This document shows positions 10,334 to 37,262 of a stretch of DNA of 64,000 nt, piece after piece. The DNA comes from Hydrolagus colliei (Eukaryota). Numbering within the stretch: the first letter of the stretch is position 1; each line of letters starts with the position of its first letter. Under the pieces are notes generated by a model, which was given only the letters and a program-made list of their open reading frames with translations, was not told where the DNA came from and searched no databases. A program made the position numbers and the translations under genes. Location of the stretch: assembly GCA_035084275.1 (NCBI GenBank), contig CM068759.1, forward strand, positions 7,874,001 to 7,938,000, written 5' to 3'.

Positions 10334-10534
10334 TCACCCATAATGATACACAAAGTCATAACTGCTGGGCTCCTTGGGGATGGGGGGAGGTGCCTCGGGG
10401 ATCTGGATGTTCTCCAGGTCCAACAGACGCAACTTCATCTCCATGCTGAGCAGAGTGTCCAGGTCGTTCTTGGTCAGCTCACTGCCCATCTCCTTCCCCA
10501 GCAAAGCGTTTAGTCCATCGGTCCAGATACAGTA
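10334..10534 (-). CDS. ELMO2: ELMO2 last coding exon
   Basis: CAG|[69 protein letters not shown]. Confidence 0.97.
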
Positions 10535-16500: not shown

Positions 16501-18464
16501 GAGGACCACAGCACCACCACTAGACTCCATCCAAAAGCTATTGCCTAGGACGAGTGGTGAGGAGTCCACTGATTGGGGCTTTTGATCGAAGCTGGGACAG
16601 ATGAGGCGTTGACCTACACGATTGGTGGGGACTGGAAGTCATCCTGGCTCATCCTCTCAGACTGTCGCAGTCTCAGGATCTCCGAGTAGCTCAGGCAGCG
16701 CAGTTTGCTCTTGAACTGATCCAGCGAATTCGGCTTCGTGCTCAGCGTCCTCGTAATCTGCTCACGGACAACCTGCATCACCTACACGCATGAGAGGGAG
16801 AGAGGCAGGGAGAGAGGGAGAGAGAGAGAGAAGTAAATCTCAGCACCTTCAGCCATCAGGGAATGAATAGAAACACTTCTGGAGCCCCATAGCAGAGTGG
16901 TTAGTGATGCAGTGAGGTTCACAACAATCAGAAACATGTGGAGTGCCAGTTATTAGTCGATTGGCGGATCAGTTTCTGGGAGTTATAATCCCTCCCAAAA
17001 AAACGTTGGTGATGAGACATTAAACCGAGGTCCCGTCTGTCTGTACAGGTCGACAATAAAGATTTCTGTGGACTATTTGAAAAGAGAAGGGAGTTTCTCT
17101 CGGTTTCCTGTACAACAATAGAATTGGTGTTCACTTTAAGGGCTGTTGGTGGAATATTATTACTGTGCGCAAATTGGCTGCCACATTAGCTTCCAAAATA
17201 CACAGTCACCACACTTTATAGTAAATCCTGTGAAGAGTTTTGAGACATCCTTTTGACGGGAAATGCAAGTCGGCTATGCCAAATGCAAAGATTTTAAAAA
17301 AAAAATAATCCTGTCCCCCAGCCCACACCCACCCAGCTCAAGATGAAAGTTAACGCCATGGTTTCTGTTGCAAGATTTCAGCCCCTGAGGGGTTCTTGGC
17401 AGGGTTGGCTGTGTGTGTGGGCGTTTGCGGGCTGTCTCAGGCTCTCTCTGTGCCAGTCACAGTTAGTGTAACTGCGGGGGTGATGTTACTGCTCCTCGGA
17501 GAACAGTCATCTTGGGAACAGGTGCAGAGCTAAGGTTCAGAGCAACCAGACCCTGATTAGAGCGCTCGACTCGCAGGCAAGAGGACCCAGGTTTGATTCC
17601 TGGGCAGGGCAAAATCTGACGAGTCTCCTACTCGTCAGATTTACCGAGCAGTCAGTAGGAACCTGGTTGTTAGTCGACTGCATATTTGTTTTCCAGGGAT
17701 AATAATTTCTCCCCCAAATAAATAATTTTTTTAAAAATGAATAATTTGGTCATTCAATCCACAACTGTTTGTGAAAACTGCTGTATATAATTGGCTGCTG
17801 CTTTTCGCCCACAAAGTATATAGTCAATTTACTTTACATTATATTCTGTGGAGCCTTTTACGAGATATCTCAATGACGTGATAAATCGCTATATCAAATG
17901 CAAGGATTATTATCAGTATTATTACTTTTATTATACTCCAAACCAGTGAGAAATCGCTGGCAGCGTGGACAACATGGATTCTGGTGTTGGTCACGGAGTC
18001 CATCCAGCGTGAGTTGCAAGCAGAGCACAGCTCCCTCTCCTATGATCCAAGTAACAACCCAACTAATAGTAATAATAATCCCAGTCACTGGTGGGAATCT
18101 CCTCTCCAGGTTATATGGAAAGGTTCTTCTTTTATTCTACATATTTCTGACACTCGGATACATTCCATTCTCTCAGATTCCGAACACACGTATTTACACT
18201 CCCTGCTCTTGGATTACTAACACTCGATATATCCTCTCTGCTCTGCAATTTCAGACACACATAAACTTATAAACTCCCTGCTCCCAGATTCCCGACACTT
18301 GATTTCGCTCAGTGGATAAGACGAGAGGCGAATATGGGAACTCGATCGTCCGCAACAACTAAAGTCCTTAAATCCGCAGAAGTGACAGACCTTTCAAGAC
18401 CGAGACCAAGTGAGAGAGAGATACACACACAGGAGTGGGAGACAGACAGTGGGAATACAGAGAA

Positions 18465-18501
<37 letters not shown>

Positions 18502-21500
18502 CACACACAAACACATTTCATAAATAATGACTGCCAGCGATAAATAAGGGAAAACCCAAGAATTAAATGAGAGATGACTTCAATAGAAAGGATGACACAG
18601 AAAGAGGCTGGTTTGAAAGAACAACAGGACGCCAAACACCTCAATGCGAATAAAAACACACACCAGGAGCCGGTCAGAGCAGCGGCCAGCCACACTCACC
18701 GACACGGTCAGAAACCATCCCCGGTACAGGCAGCTGGCAATCGGTGCCTCTCAACTGGTGCCTCTTTTTGCCAAACACAAAGGGAATGAGCACCGCACAC
18801 TCTGACACAGCTCACTGTGCTGACATGCACAGTTCTGGCAAATGTCACTCCATCTCCGCCCCTTTCTCATTAACTCTAACCAAACTGGCTCCTCCAGCTC
18901 CAAACCCTGCAAAGTCCTGCGCCGTGTTGGTTAGAGCGCTCGCCTCGCCAGCGAGAGGACCCGATCTCGATTCCCGGACAAGGTGAAACCTTAGGTAGGT
19001 TTGCTTACTCCACACGCCTGTCTACCTAGCAGTAAATAGGAACCCAGTTGTCAGTCGATTGGCGGATCGCTCTCCGGGGGCTATGTTAGGTGGTAAACAC
19101 AGCATCCAATCCATAGCAGTGACATCCGACAACAACAACAATTTGCAATTGATATAGAGTCCATCACAGTATATCTTCAGAACACTTCATAAAATGAGGC
19201 AGGAAGGGGGGGGTGGGGGGACGGGGATGGGCAGACAGAACACTGACCCAACACTAGAAGTGCGGTTGAAGAGATAGATTTTTAGGTGGGATTTTAAAGA
19301 CAGACAAAAGGGGGTGAGAGCAGGGTAAAGGGGATCAGTTCCGGAGGTTGGGGGCTGTAGGAACTGGGGGAACACAGCAAATCACATTTACACAGCGTCT
19401 TTCATGTCGGGAGGACATCCCAAGGCACTGGACTGTCAGGGAGAACGAAGGTGCAGTTGAAAGAGGTAGGTCTTTGGAAAGTACTTGCTGGAGGCAATAG
19501 AGGGAGTGAGGCAGAGGGACTGTTGGGATGGAGTTCCAGTAGGTGAGGACAGAAAGGCTGCAGACACGACTACTGATGGTGGGGCAGGGCAGGGTGAGAG
19601 ATATGGAACAGGCTGGAGCCTGCTGAGCAAAGGGAGCCATTTGTTGGTAAACAAGAGAGGAACATTGGCCAGACTACCAGGCAGCTTCCTTCTCCTCGGA
19701 CAATCAGTACAGGAGAATACACTGAGGTCAGTCACTCCACTGTGGGTGACTCTGCCATTGGCAACAAGACTGAAAAGCTTGGAAATTAAGAAAATAATAG
19801 CAAGAGTGACTGCTTGACTAAGTAATAGATAAATACCCCTCTGTCTTGTCACCGCTTGTTATTCACGGCTAATTTATTGCAGAAAAAAATCCCTTCCCCA
19901 AATCAAGTGCATGTAACTGTTGCTGTATTGGGAATGCTCACGTCTTCTCTGTGAGAGATGTGACCTGGACACACAGTGTGGTGCCTTGTGGGGGAGGCTT
20001 CCTGTGCAGAGCAGATGTTTAGCTGCTGGGGAGCGGGGGGTTGGGGGGAGGGGGGAATAATCTATCAATCTGTGATCTCTGAAACCAGGGATTTTTTTTT
20101 TTTTTTTAAACAGGGGATAAATATATACAGTATTCATACAATAATAATTCTTGCATATGGTACAGTGCCTTTCACTTCAGGACAACAACTCAAAGCGCTT
20201 CACAGGATACACTGTAAAGTGCAGTGACTGTGCACTTTGCGGGCGAGATGCAGCACTCAGTTGCTCACAGCAGTGACCCATGAGCAGCTATGAAGTGAGT
20301 GAGTGATCAGTTTTATTTGGAGGATTGTTGGCCAGGACACAAGGAGAGAGAAACTCACCCTCGCTTTGTGAATAGCGCCACGGGATCTTTAATGTCCACC
20401 TGAACAGGCAGCCGGGAGCTCGGTGTAATGTCTTATCCAAAGGACGGCACCTCCGACAATGCAGGGAAGCGACAGCTTGTGTGGGACCCAGAAAAGTGTG
20501 GAGTCCTGTAGCTCAGTGGTGAGAGCACTCGCCTTACACACGTGAGACCTTTGTTCAAGTCTAGGCTAGGGAACGGCGATATGGGAATTTTCCGGATATG
20601 GATATATCGGTTGGCTCCTATCGAGATATACCGAAATATCGGTATATTCCATTTTTTCATACTGCACATGCGCGCGCATCGGAGTGCGCCCGCATTCCGG
20701 GTGCGCGCGCATTCGGGGCCGATTTTCTCAGGAGGTAAATATCTTTCTCTCTCTGTGTCTCTCACTCTCGCCATCTCTGTGTTTTTCTGTCTGTGTCTCT
20801 CTATGTCTCTCTCCCTCTCTCCTCTCTCACATCCCCCACCATCTCTATCTATCTGTATATTATCACATCCACCCCGTCTCTCCCCCCCCCCCCCCCCCCC
20901 CACCGCCGTCCCTCTCTCGCACCCCCCACCCCCGTCGTCTCTCTCCCCCACCACCCCCCCCAGCCGTCTCTCTCCCCCTCCCCCCAGCCGTCTCTCTCCC
21001 CCTCTCCTCCCCCCCGCCGCCGTCTCTCTCCCTCTCCCCCCACCGTCCCTCGCTCTCTCCCTCCCCCCAGCCGTCACTCTCCCCCTCTCCTCCCCCCCCC
21101 CGGGTCTCTCTCCCTCCCCCCCCAGCCGTCTCTCTCTCCCTCCCCCCAGCCGTCTCTCTCCCCCTCTCCTCCCCCCCCCCCGCCGTCTCTCTCTCCCCCC
21201 CCCAGCCGTCTCTCTCCCCCTCCCCCCAGCCGTCTCTCTCCCCCTCTCCTCCCCCCCCCAGCCATCTCTCCCCCTCTCCCCCCCACCAGCCGTCTCTCTC
21301 CCCTCTCCCCCCCCCAGCCATCTCTCTCCCCCTCTCCCCCCCCAGCCGTCTATCTGCCCCTCCCCCCAGCCGTCTCTCTTCCCCTCTCCTCCCCCCAGCC
21401 GTCTATCTCCCCCTCTCCCCCCCCAGCCGTCTATCTCCCCCTCCCCCCAGCCGTCTCTCTCCCCCACAACCCCCCCCAGCCGTCTCTCTCCCCCTCACCT

Positions 21501-24500
21501 CCCCCCAGCAGTCTCTCTCCCCCTCACCCCCCACCCCCAGCAGTCTCTCTCCGCCTCACCCCACCCACCCACAGCCGTCTCTCTCACCCCACCCCTTGCA
21601 TACCTGTATTATGTATTCGAGGACTATGAATACAAGATGGCGGCTTTGCACCTCGGTCTGTGCATTGTGTATAAAGATCAGCATTCTGGGTCTTGTAGTT
21701 GATTGTGCTCGCATCCCGATTTTTTACCTCGATATATCATTTTTCGATATATCGGTATTTTTAAAATGTCTATATCGGCATACCGATATGAAAGTCATAT
21801 CGGGTTTTACCGATATATCGCCGTTCCCTAGTCTAGGCACATCAGAGCGAAACCTTGGGCAAGTTTCCTTACTCCACACGCCTAATGATAATCCGTCCAA
21901 AAAGGAACCACAATGATAAAATTGGTCATTTTCAATCCACAACTGTTTGTGGGACACTCCCGTGCACAATTGGCTGCCGGGTTTCGCCCATAAATGTAAC
22001 AGTCAATTGACTTTACAATATATTCTGTGAAACGCTTTGAGGTGTCCAGAAGACGTGAAAAAGCGCTAGATCAAAAAATGCAAGGATTATTTAAAACCTC
22101 AAAGACAACAGATAAAGCGGGTGCTAGAGGGTCATGGACTGGAGTGATGGCCGGCGACGAAGACATAAATGAAATCGATGAAACGCAGCCTCTCTGTGAG
22201 AACGGACAAAGATCGACTCTCACTGGGAGCCTCGTAATTATCCCTCACTCTGTGATCTCAGTTGCCAAGGAAGCCGTACGCAACAGTAACAGAGGGTCAT
22301 CAAGTATTAACCCTCACTCAATGCTCCCACCTAAACATACAATCCCTGACACACTATCCTGGGCCCAGTTCAACTCACACATGCACACACACACACACAC
22401 GCACACGCGCACACTCATACACTGTCCTGGCATAGTGAGAGTTTACACACACTAGCACGCTGTACAACAACAGCTATACGGGTTGCTCTTATAGTATTGA
22501 TGACACTAACACAGAGGGTTTATATAATAATATTAATAATCCTTGCATTCGATATAGCACCGTATCGCATCTTGGCGATGTCTCAAAGCACTTTGCATAA
22601 TATACTGTAAAGTGAAAATTGCCTGTACATTTTGTTGGCGAAACACGGCAGCCAATTGCGCACAGCAGTGACCCACAAACAGTCATGGATTGAATGACCA
22701 AATTATTATCCTTATTTTTTATAAGACAATCATTTTTGAAGGGATTATTACCCTGGAAAATCGCCAATCGAACTGTGTTCCTACTTACTGCTAGGTAAAC
22801 AGAAGAGTGTGGAGTAAGGAAACTTGCCCAACATGTTGCCCTGCTGGGAACTGAACTCAGGTCCCCTCATCTTGCAAGGTGAATGCTCTAACCACTGAGC
22901 TTCAGACTCCACAGTGCTCTACAGGAGTACCAACAGCAACTTGCACTCCACACATTGCTCTTTCTCAAGAGCGCTTTACGGTAACAAAGCCTGACTCCGA
23001 GCTGGGGATGGAGGAAGGTGAGGAAGTGACCGTAAGCACTCATTTGTTATGTGACAGTACAGGCCATGAAAGGCATTGAATCCCCCCCTCCAACAACCCA
23101 CCCCCGGGTACCTTGTTAAAGTCCTCAGATGTGGCCCTCATCTCTTTCCAGGTCTTGTTCAATAACTGGATACAGATGTAGAAGAATTCCTCAAAAGCTC
23201 TCTCGTGGGTGAAGAACATCGGATGATACTCGTTACAGCCCTCGTTAGCTGCCAACACAAGACACCGGCCTTTACTAGTGAGACCGTGGCTTTACCAGCA
23301 CCACCACCACCACCACGTTTAACCAGAGACCATGGTTCACCAGTGCCTTTCAAGAAGCTACAGCAACAGAGAGCTTATGGAGCAAAGGAGGGTAATTGGA
23401 GTTGAGGTACAGATCAGCTAGGATCTTGTAGAACGGTTGAAAATCCTTTACAGGTAGAATGTAACGCTGGGCTGCCGTGTTTCGCCCACAAATATACAGT
23501 CGGCTTTCCTGCTCTCCTTCCCCCTACCTCCCTACACCCCTACCCCGACTCCTCCCCATCTTTCCCCCCTTTTGTCCCCAAATCCCACTTTGATGACTGT
23601 TTGTGGGACACTGCTGTGTGCCATTTGGCTGCCGCGTTTCGCCCACAAATATTCAGTCAATTTTCTTGCTCTCCTTCACCCTACCCCGACCCCTCCCCAC
23701 CTGCTTTTGTCCCTAGCTAACTGTACAGCGCCTTGGGACGTCTTCTCGACGTGAAAGGCGCTATATAAATGTAAGTTTTGATTGATATGATTGATTGAAT
23801 GGCCCACTCCTGTCCCTATCCCCTTCCCCATCGCTACTCCCACATTAGTCCTCAAGGGTTTAAAGCCACACCCACCCTCCCACCGCCGAGAGCGAGACTC
23901 CCGAGTCTGTGGTGTTTGGGAGTGTTTGGTGGAAGGAGACTTACGCAGCTCTCCGACCTGCAGGATCTCACACAGCATCCTGGTCAGCTCAATGCTACTG
24001 CGCCCAAACGGACATTCGTGTTTGTCCTCCCGGCTGCTGTTCTCCAAGACAACCTGCAGGTGACGCAATGTGCAATCAATAAGAATAATAATGATCATAG
24101 TAATCCTTGCATTTGATACAGCATCTTATCACATCGTTTAGATGTCTCCAGAATATCCTGTAAAGTGAGCTGACACTATTTTGTGGGTGAAATGCGGCAC
24201 CCAACTGCGCACAGGAAAAACAACAGTCCGGAGTGAGTGACCAATTTTTGACTGACCATCCGATTAGCATCCGGGTTCCTACTTACTGCTAGATAAACAG
24301 AGGCGTGTGGAGAAGACAACTTTCCTAAGCTTTAGTCCTGCCTAGGAATTGAAACGTCTTTCCCGTTTGCGAGACGTGAGCTTTAAACAATATGTTACCG
24401 GATTTCACAATTACATTTGTATAGCGTCTTTCAGGAGGAGGATGTCTCAACGCATCGGATAGTCGAGAATTTGCACCCGAGAAGTGGGTTGGATGAGGAG

Positions 24501-27500
24501 GGCTGGGGCATCAGGCCAGGAGGATGACTGAAGGCACATTCGAATAGGAGGATGTTGAGACACGCCTTGAAGGAAGCAATGGATAGGGCGAGGTCAACTG
24601 AGGGATGGAGTTCCAATGGGGGTGGGTCGGCCTAAAGGCTGAAGTCCCAATTGCCAATGGTGGGCTGGGCCGGGTGGTGAGGGAGCATGGAGCAGGAGTG
24701 CGCCCACTAAACGGAAGGGTAGAGACAGGGTCTCAGCGCCCTCAAGCATTTCATGGGGCACATCCATACAAAATCACATGGGCAGGGTAATGGGTCTCGC
24801 TGGTTACCCTGATGTATGTGTCCTGGTGAAGTTTGGCGAGGTACAGCATGTTATCCAATGCCAGCATCCCGGGCGGAGTCTGGGTGAAATCCACAGCTGG
24901 GTTCACGTGGTTCTGTAAAGAGACAGACGGGGACATGAGAGCACGACAGTGAGGCCCATTGTGTGTGTATTTGCATTTTTAAAATATAGCTCATCAACGA
25001 TAGGAGGTCTCCTAAACAATATGCCCATGACACTCTGGCTTGCCTTTCCAATTAGGTATAAATCATGTCTCTACGTCAATTAGTTGTTGCGTTATTGGTT
25101 GTTGCGTTATTGACGGAGACACAAACACTTTGCCTTTCTTAGCATAGATATGTATGTTTGTAAATCATAGGATCACACAGCACAGAAGGAGGCCATTTGG
25201 CCCATCATGTCTGTGCCGATTCTTTGAAAAGAGCTGTCCAAATCAATCCCACTCCACTGCTTTCTCCCCAAAGCCCTGCAAACTTGTCCCCCCAAAATAA
25301 TTAGCCACTTCTTTCTTAAAAGGTGTTATTAAATCGGCTTCCACCACCTATGCAGGCAATGCATTCATGATCCTAACAACTCACTGTGGGAAAAAGTATT
25401 TGACTCTGTCTCTTTTAACAACTATTTTAAATTGGTGTGTACGCATGTATATATGTGCATGTGTGCTTGTATTCCCTGCATACGCGCGACTCTTGTGTGT
25501 GTGTGTGTGTGTGCGTGCGTGCGTGTGTGTGCGTGCGTGCGTGTGCGCGCAGCGCGCGCGCCCATGTTGTGTGGATGGGGTTAGGAAGACCATGCTAACA
25601 TACCGTGAAGCCCAACATTTTGTAATCCCGAGTGTACATGGCTTTACGCTTCTCCACGTTGCTGTTGTTTGGGTCCGATTCGGCATCGAACGCGATCCTT
25701 CGCAGTTCAAATATGATGTCCCTCTGGGCCTGGGGGAGAGCGGGAACGCATCAACAACAACAAATTACATTTGTAAAGCACCTTTCACATCAGGAGGATG
25801 TCCCAAGGCATTGGCGCTTTTTCATTTCCTAGCCCTTCACTTTTCCAAAACACACACACACATATACACAGAGCACTGCCCAATCCAACCAACCACAAGC
25901 ACAACACAGCATAGCCAGAGAGATCCATGCCAATGGGACTTTGGCTCCCAGGATTTAGGTCTCGACTACACTATCACATCTCACTGCTGAGCAGGCGGGC
26001 TGGTCAACAGTTGACAATGAGACCTAGCTGTGCCTTAATGGGCAGTGACAGAGTAGAATTCCCACCAGTGACATGTTTCTACTGACCCCCCCCCATCCCA
26101 AGACAATCACTCCCATCCTCTGCTCTGCAGGTTCTGGCCTGCTCCACGTGCCCTCGCCCTGCACGCTCCACCATTAGCGGTCAGGCCTTTAGCCTTTCCG
26201 CCCCCAACCGCTGGAACTCTAACCCCCACCTCCACCTCGCCCCCACCCTCCCTCGCGTTCCCCGTGCTGACCATCCTCTGGGTGGAAGCTGGAGGCTGAC
26301 CTGATCTTGAGGGTCCATCTTGGTCATCATTCTCTCCTCCAGAAGGTTAAAGGTCAGCACCTGGAGCACATACAGCTGATGGGCCATCTCGGTTTTGATT
26401 GGCCGGTTCCCACGGATGATGTGCTGGGTGTAGACGCCATATGTTACTCATAATAATCCTCGCATTCCATAGAGCGCCTCGCGGAGACGCCTCAAAGCGC
26501 TTCGCAGGATTTGCTGTAAAGCCGTGGGTTGACTGTACATTTTGTGGGCAAAACCCAGGAGCCAATTGCGCTCAGCCGTGTCCCACAAAACAGTCGTACA
26601 TTGAGTGACCAAATCATTATTAATCTCTTTTCATTCATTCTTTGGAGGGATTATTACCCCCGGAAAGTGATCTGCCAATCCACTTAAATAAATAAGGGTT
26701 CCTACTTACTAATAAACAGTGGAATAAGGAAGTTTGGCTAAGATTTTACCCCAATCGGGAATTGAACCCAGTCCTCTCACTTGTGAGGCAAGCTCACTGA
26801 CCACAACGCTACGGGAATGCACTTCTGGATACAATAGAGTTTCACTGACTGCAAAACACTCAAACTGTCCATTGGGCCCATTTAGTCCAGTTAGTTTTAT
26901 ACTTCAAACGAGTCACCAATCACCCTAAAAGCCACAGAGTGAGTGACCAACTTTTTATTTGTAGGAGGTTGTAGGCCAGGACAGCGGGAGAGAGAAAAAG
27001 TCTCTTCCCTTTGCGAGTAGTGCCATGGGATCTTTAACGTCCACCTAAACAGGCAGATTGGACCTCGGTTAAAGGTCTCATCTGAAGGATGGCAACTCCA
27101 ACCCCCAGTGCTGCAATGGAGTGTTAGCTGCTAGGTGACGGAGTCTGGTTTGAACTCACACGATTTTGACTCGAAGAGAGTGCCATCACTGTGCCAGGCT
27201 GTGGAGAGCAGAGCCTGGGGAATTACATCTCACTGTCTTACTCACGTTTAATATGATGGTTCTCAGGTGCTTCTGGGCTAAGGCACTGGACATCTCCTGT
27301 GGGGACACAGCAAGGACTTGAGAGAAACATTGAGCGGAGGCAATGGGCCCATCACACTGACTGTACAGTGAATGAGACTCTCCGCACAATGATACAGCAC
27401 AGAAAGAGGCCATTCAGCCCAACAGGGTCCCAGCCATTTAACCCCCTCCTCCCCTCTCGCTCTCCCTCGTTGCAGAGACACATCGTACAGGCACAGGGAA

Positions 27501-30500
27501 CCATGTACATTTACGCAACAATTGTAGACAATTCAGCCCATCATTGCGCCTGTACTGCCACTCGAAAATAGTTTTTCTCTGGTTAGAGTTATTCTCCTCG
27601 CTTCACACAAACACACAATAATAATGGTAGTAATTGTATTCGAGAATAACTTGTGTGGGTTTATGGACGGAGTTTTGAGCCGAGAATAAAATAGTTACCT
27701 GATACACCTGAGGCGTGAGAATCATTACGAGTACCAAGGGGTGTTTAAACATCCACCTGAATCCAGTGGACTTACTTTAACCTTTCATCCGAAGGACAGC
27801 ACCTCCACCAACCTGGCACTGCACTAAAGTCAGCCTAGCCCGTGAGCTCAATGTCCAAAAATCGTGGTATTATAAGGCACAGAAGGAGGCCATTTGGCAC
27901 CATCGTGTGTGTGTGCTGCCTCGTTGAAAAGAGCTGTCCAAATCAATCCCACTCCCCAGCGCTTTCCCCATAGCCCTGCAAACGAATCCTCACCAAATCA
28001 TTATCTAACCATCTCCCCACTGAGTCAGGCTGATTGCCTGGGCTGACACTCAGGCAGCAGCGGGGTTAAGGGTCTGGTGAGTATTGGGCGCTGAGATTAA
28101 AAGATCTGATAAACTGTGACACAGACTGAATGCGCTGCTTTCCCCTTTTCATTGCTCCATTACAACAACAAGAAAATGGACATTTTTATAGAGCCTTTCA
28201 CGTCGGGAGGCCGTCCCAAGGAGCTGGACGGTCAGTGTTTCAGACCCGAGCTGGGGCCGGGTTCGGGGAGGGTGGAGGGAAAGGAGGGGAAGCGGGGTGA
28301 CCGATGGCACATCTCATTCACGCCGGTTCCACCTGACTGTGTGCCGAGACCCTGAGTTGACATTCCTAAGAGGACAGTTTGCTCGGAATTAACAGTCAGG
28401 AACAAGAGGTGGGAACAACATTAACCCATTAACCCACGGCAACAACTTTCCTCTCTCCCCCCCCCCCCCCCCGCCCCCCCCTCCCACTCCCGTCTCACTT
28501 TCTCAGCGTCTGCGCTGGTGCTAGTTCTCTGCTCTAATCCCATTCCCTGCTCTCTCGGGTGTATTTCCAAATCCCTCTAACATGGGTGTTACGGACTTGT
28601 CGTGATCAGATGCTTGACGCTGACTGTGTAAGTGACTGTGGTTTAAACACTACGGCGTGAACTCCGAGAGAAGCACAGGGGGGGCAAGTCAGTCACTACT
28701 TACTGTCAGAGGCAGGTGCAGAGCAGGCTCCTGCCCTCCTGAGGGGGAGCAGACAGACTGGAGGTGACGGGGAAGAGAGAGAGCGAGCGAGCACCAAAGC
28801 ACAGCAACCAACCAACCATGTCCATAAAGCATGCGGCAGAACAGCAACAGAGAGCAGCGTTAGTGACAGAGGGGGGGGGGGCAAAACACACCCGGGGGAG
28901 CGGCAAACTCAGACAGACAAGTTGGGCTAGAACTGTCTCGCGCACACACACACGCATACATATGCAAGCAAACACACACACACAAATGCATGCATACACA
29001 CACATACACACACGCGCGCACAAAGATACATACGTTCACATACAATCTCACACACACACACACAATGCACACACACAAATACAAACACGCACTCATATAC
29101 ACGCACACATAAGCAGAGGCACAGACTTAAATGTATACACACCCACACGCACACACTGAACAAAGTGAGACGGAGAGAAGCTGACCTGTCTCCGGTCCTC
29201 TGGAGCTTTCAGGAACAATGCGTTGATGAGCGCGATGGCGTACGTCTGAATCTCTTGGTTTGAGCTGTAAACAGAGCGACACCTTCACAATCAGTCCCCA
29301 AGCTCACAACAGTAACAATTCCGAGACCTTTACACACCAGGCATAGTGAGGGTTAACTAACTGACAACAACTTGCATTTATCTAATTATATAGTTCAAGC
29401 GTTTTGGGGCGTAGTGGCTGAAAGTACGACCTCCAATGGCGGGGCGGAGGGTGTGAGGGGTAACAGGAAGGCCCATGCTAGCGACATCTAGCCACAGAAC
29501 CTTGATTTGGTCTCACAAGTTGCAGTAATAATAATCCTTGCAAATGATAACCTTGTTACTGCAAAACCTGGAGGCTATCTATGTTGCACATGGGATTCTG
29601 AATAGATTCCTAGAGTCAGGAGCGTATCTGAGCTTTCCCTCATTCTCACAAGTTCTTGAGTTCATCCAAGTGCCTGAAAATCGACTAACTTCCCTTTTCC
29701 AAATTGCAGAAGTATCATTTTTGTTAGAAGATTTCTAGTCTGTGTGAACACAACAGTGACTCATTATCTCTCGAAGTTCTGTAAATCAGTACGTTCTGTG
29801 GATTCCGCCCGTGTACTTCTGTTTTTCCTCTGTATCCTTCAATTAAGTTACTTGTTTGCGGAGCCGATAAAACGGTATTTCAGCCTCCCCCATGCTGAGA
29901 CTCAGACGCTGTAAAATCATTCTCATTCCTCTGAATCTTGTTCACATCAATCGATATCTTTCGCCGGGGACAGGCAAAAGGACTGTGTCGCCTCTGGGTT
30001 CAGTTTCCTGCTTGGAGAGACCGTCTGAAGTACAGTCGTCTAAAACCATTCTAAAAACAGTGCTGGCCAAGCTTTTACGATCGGCCAACAAAATAAAAGT
30101 TCTGGATCGAATTTCTCTTGATTTATTCCATGAATCAGTCAAGAAAAACCTGAAATGTTGTTGGCTGCAGCCATGGACCATGCGGGAAGTGGGGGGGGGG
30201 GGGTGGGGGGGGGAGGGCAAGGCAGAGGGATTGAGGGAAGAGTGTTCCAGAGTTTGGGGGCATAGTGGCTGAAAGCGCGACCTTCGATGGTAAGGCGGAG
30301 GGTGGGGTGAGGGACCAGTAGGACTTCCGTCGTGCAGTAAGTTTGCACTCATCCAGTCCCTCATGTCTGCCAGACAAGCTGATAAAAACATCAGCGAATC
30401 TAGAGTCGATTGCTGGAGGAGGCGAAGTAGATTTGTGTGTCCATCCCAATACGTGTGGACGTTTACCCCGCATCTAACTAAACGAAACTAACTTAAGTGA

Positions 30501-31692
30501 GCTTATAACATGGGTAACTATGTTCCCGTGTCGACTATCTAAGTTACGTCGACAAAGTTACTAACTTATTGACTGCGGCGGCTTCTAAGGGGGATCCATT
30601 CTCTCTCCGGAGAAGGCAGAGGATGGCGACTGCAGGACTGAGCCGTGGCCAGCAGAGGGTGGTGTCTCCCTGCATCTCCACCGTGGCCCCGCAGCCCACA
30701 CGCAACATTTCTGGAGCACAAACGTTAGACCCCCGGGGGTAACTGCTGGAGGCTAAACAGCTAAAGCCGCATAGCTTATTATTGATATTGCCATCTGGAA
30801 AGCATTCCTGCTGCCTGTCCTCCCACCCAAGGACCACCCCACCCGTTCGCTTTTGACGGGTTTGGCCTCTCTCTCCCTGTGCAATGGAAGTGTTTCCATC
30901 CCTTTAAAAACGTCCGTCATCGCTCCCATCCTTAAAAGACCCTCCCTGGACCCATCGCTGCTCTCAAATTACCGCCCCCGTCTCCAACCTCCCTTTCCTT
31001 TCCAAGATCCTGGAACGGGTCATTGTTTCCCGGCTTCGCTCCTTCCTCGCCCACCATTCCCATCACAAACCCCCCCCACCCACCACCCACCCACCCCAAT
31101 CAGGTTTCCCACAGCACAGAAGCAGCTTCGGTCAAAGTGACGAATGACATTTAGTCCATCTATGATGAGCAGGCTGCATGTGTGTGTGTGTGTGTGGGTG
31201 AGAGGGTGTGTGTGTGTGTGTGAGTGAGCAGGCTGTGTATGTGTGTGTGTGGGTGAGTGGGCTGTGTGTGTGTGTGTGTGGGTGAGAGGGTGTGTGTGTG
31301 TGTGTGAGTGAGCAGGCTGTGTATGTGTGTGTGTGGGTGAGTGGGCTGTGTGTGTGAGGGTGGGAGTGAGTGGGCTGTGTGTGTGGGGGTGTGTGGGTTG
31401 GCGAGATGTGTGTGTGCATGTTTGTGGGGGTGGGGGGGGGCTGTGTGTAGCCCCCCCCACCCCCACACCCCCTGGTGGGATACTCACACCTGCAGGTGAG
31501 CGATGAGCTGCCCCACAGTGATCTCCTGGGCCACCCGTTGATACAGGCTCTGGCTGTTGAGCACCATACTCTCCAGAATAGCGAGAGAGCGCTGCAGCAG
31601 AGAGGCGTCCACACTGGGCAGGTTCACATAGCCCGCAATCTGCCAGGGAGAGACAGAGCGAGAGTGGGTACCAACACAGAGAGACAGAGTAT

Positions 31693-31729
<37 letters not shown>

Positions 31730-32429
31730 GGGGGGGGGGGGGGACAGAGGGAGAGGGTGTCAGCGGGGAGAGAACGTGATTGAGAGAGTGCGAGAGAATT
31801 CATAAAAATAGTCATCCTTGCATTTGATATAGTGTCTTTGACGTTTTCTAGACGTCTCAAAGCGCTTTAGAGAATATACTGTAAAGTGAATTGACTGTAT
31901 ATTTGTGGGCGAAACACAGCGGCCAATTGCGCACAGCAGTGTCCCACACACAGCCGTGCATTGAAAATAACCTATTTATTATGGCGTGTTTTTTTGGACA
32001 CATTGTTAGCTCAGAAATTAGCAAAGAAAGAGAGGGGCGGGTGTGGAGGGTATCAGCACAGAGAGAGAGTATTGGGCAGAGGGAGACTGTGGAATAAACC
32101 CCTTCCATAACACAAGTGAACCCACAGAGAGCGAGGGAGTCAGTGAAGCGGGGAGTGAGTGGGAGAGAATCAGTGTAGGTTGGCAGCCAGGGGGAGAGAG
32201 GGAGGGAGGGAGGGAGGGAGGGACTGCTGTGGGAACGGATCTCGGCTAAAGCTGCCTCTGCAGTTTCCCACGGGATGCTGAGCCTGAAATCTGGAATTAC
32301 TTCCCAGCTCCTAACCTCAGTGTCGGGGGCACATGGAAAGCTTGCAGACTGAGCAGAACATTCCAGAACCGCCGAGGAGGCCGCTCTCCCCTCCCCCAGC
32401 TGTAAATACCCAATCTCCCACTCAGACCC

Positions 32430-32465
<36 letters not shown>

Positions 32466-35400
32466 CACAGACTTCAGCCTCATCTTTCAACTGATTACAA
32501 TGAGCTTTATTTACTCCCAGACTCCACAGCCACACGCGCTTATTGCCTTTAATCTCCTTTGTGCGGCAACAACATTGAACCACAGTCTACGTTCACACAG
32601 CGCCCTTGCTGTGGGAGAGCTTGAGAGTGGCCAAGACTGATGCAGAGGTCAGGGGTGAGGGGGGGGGGGGGGGCGGTGGGGGGCGACCGGAAACTCTGTC
32701 GAGCCTGTATTGTGAGACGCTGGGAGACGCTACCCTACGTGAAGGCCGCTATATAAAAACGCAAGTTATTGTTGTTATGGTGGTGGTCTGAAAGCGGGGA
32801 AGGAGGGGGCGAGGCAGAGGGATTGAGGGGGAGTGCTCCAGGGTTTCGGGGCGTATTGGCTGAAAGCGCAGCCGCCGACGGTGGAGCGGAGGGGTGAAGG
32901 ACAAGCCACACGAACGGCGCTCTCTCTCTCTCTCTCTCTCCCCCCCCACCCTCCGGTTACCTGTTTGATGAAGGCGGTGGAGATCATGTCCCAGGACACG
33001 ATACCGTGGTCCATCAGCTCCAGGAACGCTGTCAGGGTAAACGCCAGCGTCTCCCCAAAACTGTAACACACGCAGCATCAGCAACACACAGCCACAGGTT
33101 ACAATGTGCACTGAACATCAGGAAGAAACTATACAGGCCCAGAGAAAGGGGTGGGGGGGGGGAGGGGAGGGGGAACAATAGACAGTGAAAGAGTTTGTGG
33201 GCAGCAGTGTCCTACAAACAGCCATGGAGTGAGAGACCAATTGTTTTACTTGGGGGATTGTTGGTTGAGAAGTGGTGGGTGTGGGGAGGGTTGAGTAGGG
33301 GGGTGGCAGAGAGAGGTGGGTAGAGAGGGAAGGGTGGGGGGGAGGAGGGGGAGGGAGCAACGGAGGGACGGACGGAGGGACGGACAGGCGTGATGTGTAC
33401 GAAGCAGTGACTGACTTGGTGCCGCTCTCCACTAGTAGGGTGAGGATGTAGATACCCTCCAGGTTGATGAACTCGGTGGCGAAGGTGGCGTCAGCCGACA
33501 GCTTGGCAAGTTCCTTCAGGGCCTCCAACCGCGAGTCAGTGCCGGGAGCCTGGACTCTCTCCAGCAACTGCCGGGCAGCGCGATACTGCGGGGAGAGATC
33601 GAGAGAGATCAAGAGGGAGATAGAGCATCAGCGAGACAACAATAACACTATCAACAACAACCACAACAACTTTCATTTACACAGAGCACTTCACATCTAG
33701 TAGTGTCTCGGAATGTTTAACTATGACAGAGCCTGACGCCAGGCCGGGTGGGAGGTGACTGTTGGAGAGGATGGTCTCCAGGAGAGATCTGAAAATGGGG
33801 ATGGAGGGGGCAAGGCGGAGGGATTGAGGGAGAGAGTTCCAAAGTTTGGGGGCGTAGCGGCTGGAAGCACGGCCGGTGATGGTGAAATGGAGGCAATGAG
33901 GCAGCAGAGTGGAAATAGCGGGTTGTAGGGAGTAAGCAGTTTGGAGAGATAGGGGGAGGTACCAGGGCTTGGAAGGGATTTGTAGGTGAGTGTGAGGATC
34001 ATGAGGTTGATCCATTCTGAAACAGGGAGCCAGTGGACCCTAGTGAGGACTTGTGCGATGGGGGTACAGTATAGGGGCTACAAGCGGATACTCTTGGGGA
34101 ATATAACACCCGCTCTTTTACGAGGGGTCTGGATAGAGAGCTCAGAGAAGCACATCTCAGCTACAAGCAACTAGTAACTGTCTGGTGGGGTGGGTGAGGG
34201 GGTAGGGGGGGGTGGGAGAGGGCTGGGGCTTCAATTTTCTCAGTATTTTTCACCCCCTTGTCCTAGCAGTGGACAAGCAGTGGGAAAGCTTGCCAGGCTG
34301 CGCTTTCAATGGCAAGCTACGCGTGTTTAGCTGGTTAGACGCCAGAAATTACTCCAACACTCACACTAAGATCCACCCCACCCAGCCCCTCCCCAAGCCT
34401 TGGCTCTCACCAACCTTCGCCTGAGGCTCTCTGGAATTACATCAGCGGTGTGCGTCCCATTCCAGACACAGGGAGATTTCTGGGAATGTGAGGAATTCTC
34501 TGTGTCTAGACTCAACGGGTCTATTTCCTGCTCTGTTTTTTTTGTTAAAATTAAATTAGTTGTTTTTTAAATCCCTTCCCATAGAATCATAGAGGCTTGC
34601 AGCTCAGAAACAGCCCACCAGATCTATGGGTGAAGTGCCTAGTCTAATACCAGCCACACTCCTGATCACCCCCCACCAAAACTCTATAAGCATCTCTCTC
34701 TGTTTCAGACATGGTCCCAACCTCCCACTTTACAATAATACCCCGAGTTTGGGCCTCGAACAAACAATTCCACATTCCAGTCACGCTCTGTGTAAAGAAT
34801 GTGGCTAAACTTCCCCTTTCATTCCTTTCACACTTTATCCTCTTTTCCCTCCAGTCACTGAGCAATGAGAATAACTCACTGATGGGATAACCAGTGATCC
34901 AGACACCGGAAGAGGGGCAGCCAGCGGTCTGGACAGTGGAGGTGGAGTAGGGAGGGGTGGGGCTCGGGGGGGAGGTGGGAGGGGAGGTTGAGGGGGTGGG
35001 AGAGGAGAAAAGGGGGATAGAAGGGGAGGGAAGAACTAGTGAACCAGATTGTGGGTGTTCACAAAAATACCAGACGACATTTCCTCTGGACCAGGCCTGG
35101 GACAGGGCAGGCTGGGGTGAGCTGGGAATAGCACCAATACCTACGGGAGAGATGGCCAGCCGCAGTATGGTGCCATTTTTGATCTCACTGCGAGTCTAGA
35201 AGGAATCAGGAGAGACAAACAGTGAAACATTTACAAATGAATAGACTCACTCTCCTCGAGTTTGATTCCTTGCTCCCCTCCGCCCCACTTCCAATGGGCC
35301 AGTCCCCACGGTTACCTCTCCCATGCGGCCCTTATTCATAATAATAACTCTGCGCTGCAATAATAACGCATCTGATACAGCTGGTTATAACAGCATTGAC

Positions 35401-37262
35401 ACATTTTGAAACGCTTCACGGGACACACTGTAAGGTGGAGTGATCCTGTATTTTGTTGGTGGAAGGCGATTTGCGCACAGCCGTGTCCCGCAAACAGTCA
35501 TGGAGTGAGGCGAGCGGGGGATTGTTGGCCAGGACACCGAGAGACACGAAACATTGCCAGGCAAATCAAAGGGGAACGAGAATGTAGGTTAGTGAGAGCT
35601 TTATAGCTGGAGATTAAAAGAGCGCAAGATGTGTTTAATGGTTTGATCCACGGGCCGTGCTCAAGAAGTCACCGCTGAACAGTGCCACCAGCACTGACCT
35701 GACAGGCAAGGTCTCCTCTCGAGATGGGAGTCCGGCTTACTGCAGGGAGGGGAGGGGAGCATGTGGGCCTAGTACGTGTGTGATTACATCTGTGACTTAA
35801 TTATTCTAACAACCGGTGTAAGGCAACACAGACGGCGTTAACTCCCTCACTGCCTCCCCAGTCATACACGGGCGTATAGATACGCACACGCTCGTGACAC
35901 ACATGCACGCTCACACAGCACACACACGCACATACACTTGTACACGCACACACACACACACACACAGATACACACAGTGGAGTTTAGGATGAGAGGAGCC
36001 TGACCTTCTCAGTGATGTAGAGCTGCGTCCCGTCAGCATAGCGCAGTGTGTAGTGTTCGGGGTTTGACAGTGTCCACCTGACAAAACAGCGATAAACAGC
36101 AGCAGTCAGTCAGTCAGTCAGTCAGTCAAGCCCCAGGCCCCCGTCACCCCACACCCCCAACTTCCCACAAACCCAGCTCCCAGCCCGGCCACGCATTGCA
36201 TATCGGGCTGACTCAGCGACTTACCCATCACAAACCTCCCTGATGATCGCAGTCAGCGGTTTCTTCTGTAAGAGGGAGAAAGTAACAACGAACAAACTGA
36301 TCATCGAGATCCTCATCACCGCGAGCAGAGCTCCCCCTCCCCCACCCCACCCCACCCCCAGAACACTAAACGTGGAACATTTCAGAACGAATGGGAAACC
36401 ACACAGCGGTCAACCATTCATTCACAGCCTTTCATTCACTGCAAAGTAAACTTTTCTTCGCAACTGGAAGCTTTTTAGCTTAGATCATCACAGCCTCGCA
36501 TGAGATCACAAGGTTCGTTTGGATGAAGGTCCGTTGGTCCTTCAGCCCAACCGATCTCATCCCTCCAGAGCACCAGGCCTACCATTCCCCTCATCGCCCA
36601 CAAAATATACAGTCAATTAACTTTACAGTATATTCTGTGAAGCGCTTTGAGAATGTCGATAAGATGTAAAAAGTGTTATACCAAATGCAAGGATTATTAT
36701 TTTTATCATTATTATCACAGCATCAATGTCAATGGCTTCAAACTGGCTTCCGGGCAAAGGCTCGGCACAAAACAACTTGTCTATGTGTGTGTGTGTGTGT
36801 GTTTGTGTGAGAGACAGTGTGTGAGAGTGAGTGAGTGTGTGTGACAATGTGTGTGTGTGACAATGTGTGCGTGTTTGCAAAATTGCATCTGGGAGAGTGG
36901 GATTGTCTGCATGTGTGTGTGTGTGAGAGTGAGGGTGTGTGTGTGAGAGAACATGTGTGTGAATGAACGTGTGTGTGTAATAATAAAATAATAATCCTTG
37001 CATTTGATATCACGCTTTTCACACCGAATCGACGTCTCAAAGAGCTTCACAGAATATACTGTAAAGTTAATTGATGTCACTTGATGCGTGTGAATTGATG
37101 TGTATGAAAGTGTGCAACAGTGAGTGAGTGTGCTTCCTTCCCCTTCCTCCCCCCACCCCCACCCCCCACTCCCCCAGTTCTCACCTGGTCGATTTCGATC
37201 AGCTGGGCGTTGGCTCCAGGCCACTCGATAGCGACCTTCACGATGTCAGACGGAGGGGGCAT
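10334..37262 (-). CDS. ELMO2: Engulfment and cell motility protein 2, whole gene CDS (20 constitutive coding exons, 2139 nt, 712 aa)
   Basis: N-terminus [20 protein letters not shown] and C-terminus [22 protein letters not shown] are ELMO2-type. RBD, ARM/EID, ELMO, PH and EAD/PxxP regions are present in order, and all exon phases join in frame. Confidence 0.96.
10690..11160 (+). mobile_element. L2-clade LINE 3' fragment
   Basis: Degenerate HWLPI/FKILI segment and 3' tail ...GTGAAAGACGCTATACAAAT. Confidence 0.7.
11480..12350. mobile_element. CR1-type LINE remnants (RT fragment on minus ~11480-11900; 3' tails on plus ~12070-12350)
   Basis: Degenerate KW..W.MFN.EK.KV-like motif on minus; tail GGGCCGAATGGCCTCCT...ATTCTATG. 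Confidence 0.6.
12456..12533 (-). CDS. ELMO2: ELMO2 coding exon 19 (GC donor)
   Basis: CAG|[26 protein letters not shown]|GCAAGT, 78 nt. Confidence 0.94.
13890..14250 (-). mobile_element. Deu-domain (AmnSINE/SacSINE-like) SINE copy; similar copies at ~14610-15050, 17000-17290, 20140-20470, 61010-61350
   Basis: Shared 3' body plus a Deu-like segment (CAGGTGGATGTTAA...CTATTCGAAA.GAGAAGGGAG...GGCCAACAAT); family assignment from memory. Confidence 0.65.
14332..14414 (-). CDS. ELMO2: ELMO2 coding exon 18
   Basis: CAG|[28 protein letters not shown]|GTACAA, 83 nt. Confidence 0.95.
15115..15222 (-). CDS. ELMO2: ELMO2 coding exon 17 (PH domain)
   Basis: CAG|[36 protein letters not shown]|GTAAGT, 108 nt. 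Confidence 0.96.
15562..15671 (-). CDS. ELMO2: ELMO2 coding exon 16
   Basis: CAG|[36 protein letters not shown]|GTATGG, 110 nt. Confidence 0.96.
16618..16781 (-). CDS. ELMO2: ELMO2 coding exon 15
   Basis: TAG|[55 protein letters not shown]|GTAGGT, 164 nt (not in ORF track). Confidence 0.96.
17550..17920 (+). mobile_element. tRNA-derived SINE copy
   Basis: Head remnant, linker, body and TTA tail. Confidence 0.75.
20567..21830. mobile_element. hAT-superfamily non-autonomous DNA transposon (MITE-like, 1264 bp)
   Basis: Perfect 16-bp TIR TAGGGAACGGCGATAT, 8-bp TSD GTCTAGGC (20559-20566 and 21831-21838), subterminal ATCGG/CCGAT repeats; interrupts a SINE. Confidence 0.9.
20880..21590. repeat. 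C-rich degenerate tandem repeat (core CCCCCCAGCCGTCTCTCTCCCC) inside the hAT element
   Basis: Repeated core visible directly; source of the spurious Pro-rich/Gly-rich ORFs. Confidence 0.85.
22530..22912 (-). mobile_element. tRNA-derived SINE copy
   Basis: Tail, body, linker and head on the minus strand. Confidence 0.8.
23112..23248 (-). CDS. ELMO2: ELMO2 coding exon 14
   Basis: CAG|[46 protein letters not shown]|GTACCC, 137 nt. Confidence 0.96.
23945..24053 (-). CDS. ELMO2: ELMO2 coding exon 13
   Basis: CAG|[36 protein letters not shown]|GTAAGT, 109 nt. Confidence 0.96.
24808..24912 (-). CDS. ELMO2: ELMO2 coding exon 12
   Basis: CAG|[35 protein letters not shown]|GTAACC, 105 nt. Confidence 0.96.
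25604..25729 (-). CDS. ELMO2: ELMO2 coding exon 11
   Basis: CAG|[42 protein letters not shown]|GTATGT, 126 nt. Confidence 0.96.
26301..26423 (-). CDS. ELMO2: ELMO2 coding exon 10
   Basis: CAG|[41 protein letters not shown]|GTCAGC, 123 nt. Confidence 0.96.
26449..26816 (-). mobile_element. tRNA-derived SINE copy ending ~23 nt from ELMO2 exon 10 acceptor
   Basis: Tail, body, linker and head on the minus strand. Confidence 0.78.
27246..27296 (-). CDS. ELMO2: ELMO2 coding exon 9
   Basis: CAG|[17 protein letters not shown]|GTGAGT, 51 nt. Confidence 0.95.
28704..28738 (-). CDS. ELMO2: ELMO2 alternative microexon candidate (35 nt as given; 27 nt from internal AG)
   Basis: Pyrimidine tract ...TCTGCTCCCCCTCAG, strong donor ACA|GTAAGT. 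The 3' reading frame gives EPALHLPLT, resembling the recalled mouse 12-aa insert DKHLNPLDLPVT at the same junction. Confidence 0.65.
29186..29264 (-). CDS. ELMO2: ELMO2 coding exon 8
   Basis: CAG|[26 protein letters not shown]|GTCAGC, 79 nt. Confidence 0.95.
29478..30150. repeat. Unclassified ~650-bp dispersed repeat, copy 1
   Basis: Near-identical to 53493-54135, same orientation, offset 24002 bp over the core. Confidence 0.85.
30330..31170. mobile_element. L2 reverse-transcriptase remnants (minus ~30330-30450; plus ~30860-31170)
   Basis: [17 protein letters not shown] on minus; [24 protein letters not shown] on plus. Confidence 0.7.
31168..31450. repeat. (TG)n compound microsatellite with an 84-bp higher-order duplication
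   Basis: 28-aa periodicity in the ORF track; other (CA)n tracts at ~18465, 25495, 28940, 35890, 36785, 38260. Confidence 0.85.
31488..31639 (-). CDS. ELMO2: ELMO2 coding exon 7
   Basis: CAG|[51 protein letters not shown]|GTGAGT, 152 nt. Confidence 0.95.
32961..33060 (-). CDS. ELMO2: ELMO2 coding exon 6
   Basis: CAG|[33 protein letters not shown]|GTAACC, 100 nt. Confidence 0.95.
33416..33585 (-). CDS. ELMO2: ELMO2 coding exon 5
   Basis: CAG|[56 protein letters not shown]|GTCAGT, 170 nt (donor position slightly uncertain). Confidence 0.9.
33655..34060 (-). mobile_element. L2-clade LINE 3' fragment
   Basis: [34 protein letters not shown] plus TTG tail. Confidence 0.8.
35145..35195 (-). CDS. 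ELMO2: ELMO2 coding exon 4
   Basis: TAG|[17 protein letters not shown]|GTAGGT, 51 nt. Confidence 0.95.
36005..36077 (-). CDS. ELMO2: ELMO2 coding exon 3
   Basis: CAG|[24 protein letters not shown]|GTCAGG, 73 nt. Confidence 0.95.
36225..36265 (-). CDS. ELMO2: ELMO2 coding exon 2
   Basis: CAG|[14 protein letters not shown]|GTAAGT, 41 nt. Confidence 0.94.
37185..37262 (-). CDS. ELMO2: ELMO2 coding exon 1 (exon begins in UTR at 37325)
   Basis: [26 protein letters not shown]|GTGAGA; upstream acceptor TTTCACTGCAG ending at 37326. Confidence 0.96.

Follow-up and report, generated by a model that had tools for sequence, protein, structure and literature searches.

A candidate optional exon of 54 nt, in frame between coding exons 8 and 9, in ELMO2 of the holocephalan Hydrolagus colliei

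The stretch at 28757–28704 on the minus strand, which is bounded by AG and GTAAGT, preserves the reading frame and matches an insert of shark and ray ELMO2 proteins. Judging from its sequence, it is very probably an optional exon that would add a loop beside the predicted BAI-receptor-binding groove. Positions are those of the window, i.e., the whole 64,000-nt stretch of DNA that was analysed. The gene at this locus is ELMO2 of the holocephalan Hydrolagus colliei, for which 20 coding exons were mapped; ELMO1 and a third ELMO paralogue are on other contigs of the genome. The form that skips the cassette has 712 aa, of which 707 are identical to the C. milii protein P0001. Coding exons 8 and 9 meet in phase 0, and inclusion of the 54 nt leaves an open ELMO2 frame of 730 aa, which speaks against the frameshifted main product proposed in the first-pass annotation. 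The gene parts concerned are the following.

10334..37262, minus strand: ELMO2 coding span with 20 constitutive coding exons (exon mapping)
29186..29264, minus strand: ELMO2 coding exon 8, whose last residues are the equivalents of the BAI1-contacting L244, E248, and R251
27246..27296, minus strand: ELMO2 coding exon 9 (exon mapping)
28704..28757, minus strand: candidate 54-nt in-frame cassette exon encoding 18 aa between coding exons 8 and 9 (translation and peptide match)

Some observations were also made elsewhere in and around the gene. The intron after coding exon 19 begins with GC (12455–12454, minus strand) and is thus a GC-AG intron. At the junction that corresponds to the intron after coding exon 5 (33415–33061), many shark/ray ELMO2 entries carry a 7-aa insert, and ELMO1 carries a 12-aa insert; a match to either insert was sought in this intron of the window, and no candidate was found. 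Downstream of ELMO2 (approximately 3300–2460, minus strand), there are exons with PPPMGRG and PPPGMR repeats, which we take to resemble the SNRPB tail.

The first-pass annotation had already placed a short exon between exons 8 and 9, and the bases that it quoted were all verified on the minus strand: an internal AG at 28740–28739, a run of three Gs at 28736–28734, and GTAAGT after 28704. Its exon of 35 nt, one base short, could not be confirmed, since the CAG at 28760–28758, which gives 54 nt in frame, had been missed; the frameshift arose because the internal AG was chosen as the acceptor. The splice signals of the longer exon are as follows (contigs X5, X6, X7, and X13 are described below, and L010 is a genomic copy of the 36-nt bony-vertebrate exon).

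28758..28760, minus strand: CAG acceptor of the 54-nt exon, 19 nt upstream of the acceptor in the first-pass annotation, with a long pyrimidine tract before it
28698..28703, minus strand: GTAAGT donor, with no listed change in X5, X6, X7, and X13
28859..28865, minus strand: CACTAAC, a distal branch-point-like motif whose A (28860) precedes the exon by 103 nt
28830..28834, minus strand: GCATG, an RBFOX-type core; L010 has a GCATG about as far from its donor

Two features of the upstream intron bear on the choice of the acceptor. One is that no AG occurs in the 148 nt preceding the upstream CAG; this AG-free zone exceeds the zones of 18 of the gene's 19 other acceptors; the zone of L010 is 144 nt. 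Another is that the CTAAC is the sole motif of its type within the 200 nt upstream of the 54-nt exon. Acceptor scanning favours the first AG downstream of the branch point. On a crude acceptor matrix built from just 19 sites, i.e., the gene's other acceptors, the upstream CAG scored 6.9, and the median of those 19 acceptors is 5.4. From these sequence features, we are strongly confident that the cassette would be included via the CAG at 28760–28758, the first AG after the distal branch point. It was also observed that 78 nt of the upstream intron (28871–28794), which hold both the CTAAC and the GCATG, have no listed change in X5, X6, X7, and X13, and this segment is likely to be a splicing control element. 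The distance from GCATG to the donor is 131 nt in the window versus 142 nt in L010. CACTAAC presumably fits both a QKI motif and a branch point, and GCATG presumably fits the RBFOX core.

The identity of the cassette was examined at the protein level using a shark/ray set of 57 entries (P0007–P0063; 3 assigned by similarity), whose isoforms are database models. An 18–19-aa insert starting with SVL occurs at the exon 8/9 junction in 14 of the 57 entries, representing 8 species, while 42 entries have no insert and one does not contain the region.

Shark/ray entries with the insert: P0007, P0016, P0018, P0024, P0025, P0028, P0029, P0040, P0042, P0047, P0048, P0050, P0051, P0056

An example of this insert is SVLPSSEGEDSDLHLPLT (P0047, P0050, and P0051). 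The chimaera peptide is identical to the 18-aa shark/ray inserts at 8–11 of 18 positions, and its first six residues, which are encoded upstream of the acceptor in the first-pass annotation, match at 3–4 of six. Against the shark/ray inserts, its BLOSUM score is 50, and the next best is 19 (252 stop-free AG-54nt-GT/GC stretches on the minus strand of the window). The score on the first six residues was equalled by only 5 of the 8536 AG-following 18-mers in the window; these residues are of low complexity, and 109 of 7381 pyrimidine-rich 18-mers score equally, which makes this part of the match weaker by itself. The match of the cassette's peptide to the shark/ray inserts is more than chance.

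A shorter insert of 12 aa with the same end was found in 83 of the 209 retrieved ELMO2 proteins, a set that was enriched by the query and in which 66 proteins are without the insert, 30 are unmatched by the pattern, and 30 have other lengths. The mammalian version of this insert is DKHLNPLDLPVT (P0138, P0140, and P0335), and by sequence the cassette is its homologue. The homology of the short exon to the mammalian 12-aa insert, as first noted, is thereby upheld (the set has no mouse entry), and the occurrence of shark/ray and bony-vertebrate inserts at the same junction bears out the earlier view that the cassette is ancient in jawed vertebrates. In birds and reptiles, ELMO2 inserts lengthened by Q or QQ were observed (P0144, P0149, P0151, P0340, P0342, P0190, and P0192), as would be expected if this exon had tandem NAG acceptors. 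The insert was present in none of the 10 C. milii ELMO2 entries examined, and a degenerate-pattern search for the shark/ray genomic exon in metagenome contigs gave 0 matches. On the whole, the sequences point to the cassette as a real, conserved, in-frame exon candidate whose counterparts in sharks, rays, and bony vertebrates have been annotated before. In our literature search, neither the insert nor its length shift or ELMO1 paralogy was found to be described; VastDB and other supplements may list it.

The conservation of this exon was examined in DNA contigs from 5 of 14 listed sequencing runs, none of the 14 being an RNA run. X1 (28495–28935) and X5 (28595–28935) come from the same species (organism A; two samples from two studies), and either may be the source of the assembly; both show 0 substitutions and 0 gaps over the exon. 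The related samples are X6 (organism B), X7, and X13 (organism C), for which no substitution or indel is listed between 28680 and 28770, with 9 of the 12 X13 substitutions placed and 3 unplaced. When the variable sites were pooled, none of the 18 sites in 269 nt fell within the 54-nt exon (p 0.018). The X13 flanks differ at 70 of 516 bases (13.6%), and no difference is listed in the exon (p about 4e-4). Zero change in the acceptor-side 19 nt alone is non-significant (p 0.06); the entire exon, including the third positions, has no listed change (p 0.07 among the contigs compared).

These contigs bear directly on two other explanations. The first-pass annotation had suggested that a fourth G is missing from the assembly and that the true exon has 36 nt. 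The length of the bony-vertebrate exon is all that speaks for such an error. When the Gs were counted, there was no gap in X1 and X5 and no indel listed in the exon for X6, X7, and X13, and a fourth G would destroy the 54-nt frame; the run of three Gs is thus real, and the chance of an assembly error is practically negligible. The other explanation is that the cassette is a decaying relic whose splicing has been lost in chimaeras, as might be read from the 10 C. milii entries without the insert. The exon, donor, and acceptor nevertheless have no listed change, against the above divergence in the X13 flanks, and we consider such decay very improbable.

The conserved exon also contains two internal acceptor candidates.

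28739..28741, minus strand: internal CAG, the acceptor in the first-pass annotation, formed by Ser-Gly codons 6–7; crude score 7.7, use predicted only
28731..28733, minus strand: second internal CAG for a 27-nt in-frame form; weak (crude score 0.3), with an open 721-aa product

The translations agreed with the first-pass annotation on both: an early stop in the 35-nt reading and an intact frame in the 27-nt one. Its idea of a shifted acceptor holds for the shift itself; the direction is upstream, giving 54 nt, and the downstream 27-nt option does not stand. That form was rejected, as its acceptor is weak in comparison with the gene's median (0.3 vs 5.4) and no 9-aa insert of such type was found among the 209 proteins.

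The internal CAG of the 35-nt form needs closer consideration. On the crude 19-site matrix, it slightly outscores the upstream acceptor (7.7 vs 6.9). Among the gene's 19 other exons, there is no case of an internal AG within 25 nt that equals the real acceptor in strength. Its use would cause a frameshift with a stop at residue 259, 1196 nt before the last junction, a distance that satisfies the > 50-nt rule for NMD. It is therefore conceivable that the exon has dual acceptors, i.e., a 54-nt coding form and a regulated internal CAG (28741–28739) whose 35-nt NMD form lowers the ELMO2 output. Besides the position of the stop, such use would fit the internal site's own pyrimidine tract and its above-median score, such an internal site being present in no other exon of the gene, the lack of any listed change at this site in X5, X6, X7, and X13, and the resemblance between TAGGAGG at the L010 acceptor and CAGGAGG here, one base displaced. 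However, the upstream CAG is the one that first follows the sole CTAAC-type motif, and because the whole exon is unchanged, the conservation of the internal AG needs no cause of its own. In addition, the shark/ray Glu located 12 residues from the insert end lines up with the residue that opens the bony insert, so that no lost base is required. We regard dual acceptor use as unlikely.

A stronger claim is that the 35-nt form predominates and that the exon has turned into a poison exon in the chimaera lineage. In its favour are the internal acceptor, which scores well locally, and the lack of the insert in all 10 holocephalan entries examined; against it, the match of the six upstream codons to the shark/ray insert persists, the distance to the donor has stayed at exactly 54 nt, and every related sample compared retains the open frame. 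We find this claim scarcely credible. Of the on/off poison switch proposed in the first-pass annotation, the surprising conversion of a conserved microexon to a poison exon is not sustained; what is left is minor use of the internal acceptor, to which we give a low probability. A fuller scenario, in which an ancient pre-duplication exon swallowed its own pyrimidine tract in cartilaginous fishes and the old acceptor inside, one base out of frame, became a regulated NMD switch, appears quite unlikely. If it were true, one exon would have three outcomes: skipping, a loop that tunes receptor binding, or degradation of the transcript.

The preferred reading, an in-frame 54-nt cassette, gains depth from the paralogues. 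In the Hydrolagus genome (G000), the ELMO1 intron between coding exons 8 and 9 contains a 45-nt in-frame stretch.

L008:293-249 (G000:C2), minus strand: ELMO1 45-nt exon candidate, LDLEDNVDIFDCPLT; its splice signals include TACTAAC and several UGC, and the donor is GTAAGT

At this junction, 15-aa ELMO1 inserts occur in carpet sharks, sturgeon, frog, and mammals, and 13-aa inserts occur in osteoglossomorphs; the Hydrolagus stretch matches the 15-aa inserts of sturgeon, sharks, and mammals; the other cassette of ELMO1 encodes 12 aa. The ELMO1 insert was absent from the 10 C. milii ELMO1 entries searched. In the third-paralogue locus L009 (G000:C23), the search for a counterpart of the cassette gave weak candidates at best, and exon 9 was unlocated by tblastn. 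Given the 12-aa bony ELMO2 version and the 15-aa ELMO1 paralogue, the exon is therefore read as ancient, with an acceptor that moved in 3-base steps. By sequence, the cassette predates the ELMO1/ELMO2 split, retains its donor end, and varies at the acceptor by whole codons. One exon has been kept since before the split, with lengths of 12, 13, 15, 18, and 19 aa, and the annotation of holocephalans would gain ELMO2 and ELMO1 exons that are missing from the C. milii entries examined.

How the cartilaginous ELMO2 exon came to be six codons longer than the bony one can be considered from its 5′ part.

28740..28757, minus strand: first 18 nt of the exon at its 5′ end, pyrimidines making up 15 of 18 bases (base composition)

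In the gene's other 19 exons, the first 18 nt contain 5–11 pyrimidines, so that the 5′ 18 nt of the cassette are likely to be an exonised former polypyrimidine tract. When the exons are anchored at the donor, these extra 18 nt align in register with the stretch of L010 that serves its teleost-type 36-nt exon as pyrimidine tract and AG. ACCTCC, which immediately precedes the chimaera acceptor, is in exact register with L010, and 753 of 20000 shuffles were as good. The overall intron similarity to L010 was non-significant (318 of 2000 shuffles; control acceptors 16–23 vs 24). The shark Glu mentioned above corresponds to the first residue of most fish inserts. Cartilaginous fishes may thus have lengthened a 36-nt exon: an AG would have been gained 18 nt upstream and the old one lost by substitution, the old pyrimidine tract would have become six codons, and the internal AG would be a by-product of the Ser-Gly codons. 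We incline slightly toward this simplest path, for which one distant sequence was compared.

Alternative histories, which together have an appreciable but lesser probability, are that the long exon is ancestral and was trimmed by a downstream AG in bony vertebrates, or that a 36-nt exon lost a single base and an upstream AG rescued the frame. The ELMO1 version, being intermediate (15 aa), leaves the direction of the length change unfixed, and the rescue would fit the fact that the L010 acceptor and the internal AG are offset by one base. Conversely, the pyrimidine-rich 5′ 18 nt, which are also unlike the first residues of the ELMO1 insert, favour the exonised tract, and the shark Glu in register favours a history without an indel. 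Taken singly, trimming in bony vertebrates seems doubtful and the rescue of a lost base decidedly doubtful.

The position of the insert suggests a possible function. In the report on the BAI1/ELMO2 structure (PMC6318265), L244, E248, and R251 contact BAI1. Sixteen residue numbers given in that report agree with skip isoforms of 720 aa (P0099 and P0106); therefore, the crystallised form is without the insert, and the insertion point lies after residue 252 (Q252). The aligned solved ELMO1 chain is also without the insert. Based on this numbering, the insert would adjoin the BAI1-contacting residues, and an unstructured loop of 12–18 aa there could alter receptor binding. We tentatively propose that the insert after Q252 tunes the binding of BAI-type adhesion GPCRs and hence Rac activation through DOCK. 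In the AlphaFold model of P0050, the mean pLDDT is 54.6 and the values are < 50 across 251–328; the coil at the insert was therefore given no weight. The solved ELMO1/ELMO2 chains without the insert, together with the neighbourhood of the BAI1 contacts, raise the question of whether splicing tunes the signalling from adhesion GPCRs to ELMO/DOCK/Rac.

As to regulation, the ELMO1 exon provides an analogy. According to the PMC9303857 supplement, human ELMO1 HsaEX0022145 (45 nt) has a PSI of 63.5 in retina, 13.9 in neural tissues, and 1.9 in other tissues, and in the same source its responses to SRRM3/4 overexpression are small (3.7 and 12.7). For zebrafish elmo1 DreEX0029709 (42 nt), the PMC12626424 supplement gives a neural dPSI of 65 and a dPSI of −29.65 in the srrm3/4 eMIC mutant. 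Both exons likely correspond to the ELMO1 insert at this junction, being matched by length and domain, not by sequence. ELMO2 was not found in the neural/retina exon supplements searched, namely PMC4317164 (5 files, excluding file 1), PMC12626424 (12 files), PMC7935315 (12 of 19 files), and PMC9303857 (12 of 18 files); therefore, neural specificity is borrowed here from ELMO1. By this analogy, we lean moderately toward tissue-restricted inclusion of the ELMO2 cassette, probably neural or retinal.

The cassette can finally be compared with known systems. Poison (AS-NMD) exons bring a premature stop upon inclusion, and the 35-nt reading would likewise stop far upstream of the last junction. In contrast, the comparatively supported 54-nt form is in frame and open; only the 35-nt reading stops, and the use of its site is predicted only.

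SRRM3/4-dependent neural microexons (3–27 nt) carry a UGC close upstream of the acceptor. The cassette resembles them in being short, frame-preserving, conserved, and located in a GTPase-pathway gene, but differs from them in its length of 54 nt and in lacking a UGC that is both conserved and close to the acceptor: the first one upstream, at −36, is altered in X6, X7, and X13. The UGC at 28751, on which the first-pass annotation based its SRRM3/4 argument, sits inside the exon at +6, and that argument does not extend to the 54-nt acceptor. The length also exceeds the size classes of 27 nt and 51 nt given in PMC12626424.

The ELMO1 exon is similar in its 15-aa insert ending with D-x-P-L-T at the same junction and in the same ARM-like domain (PF11841). 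It differs in gene and length, in that neural/retina regulation is reported for ELMO1 only, and in that several UGC lie no more than 30 nt from the acceptor of the Hydrolagus ELMO1 copy, unlike in the ELMO2 exon. Closer to the cassette is the 12-aa (36-nt) bony insert (P0075, P0103, P0135, P0138, and P0335; genomic copy L010), which shares the junction and the donor end and, in L010, the long AG-free zone and the upstream GCATG, but which is six residues shorter N-terminally, its acceptor lying 18 nt nearer the donor than that of the chimaera. The closest counterpart is the 18–19-aa shark/ray ELMO2 insert; although the middle six residues match at just 1–2 of six, it agrees with the chimaera cassette in gene, junction, phase, length (18 aa), SV start, and L-x-L-P-L-T end.
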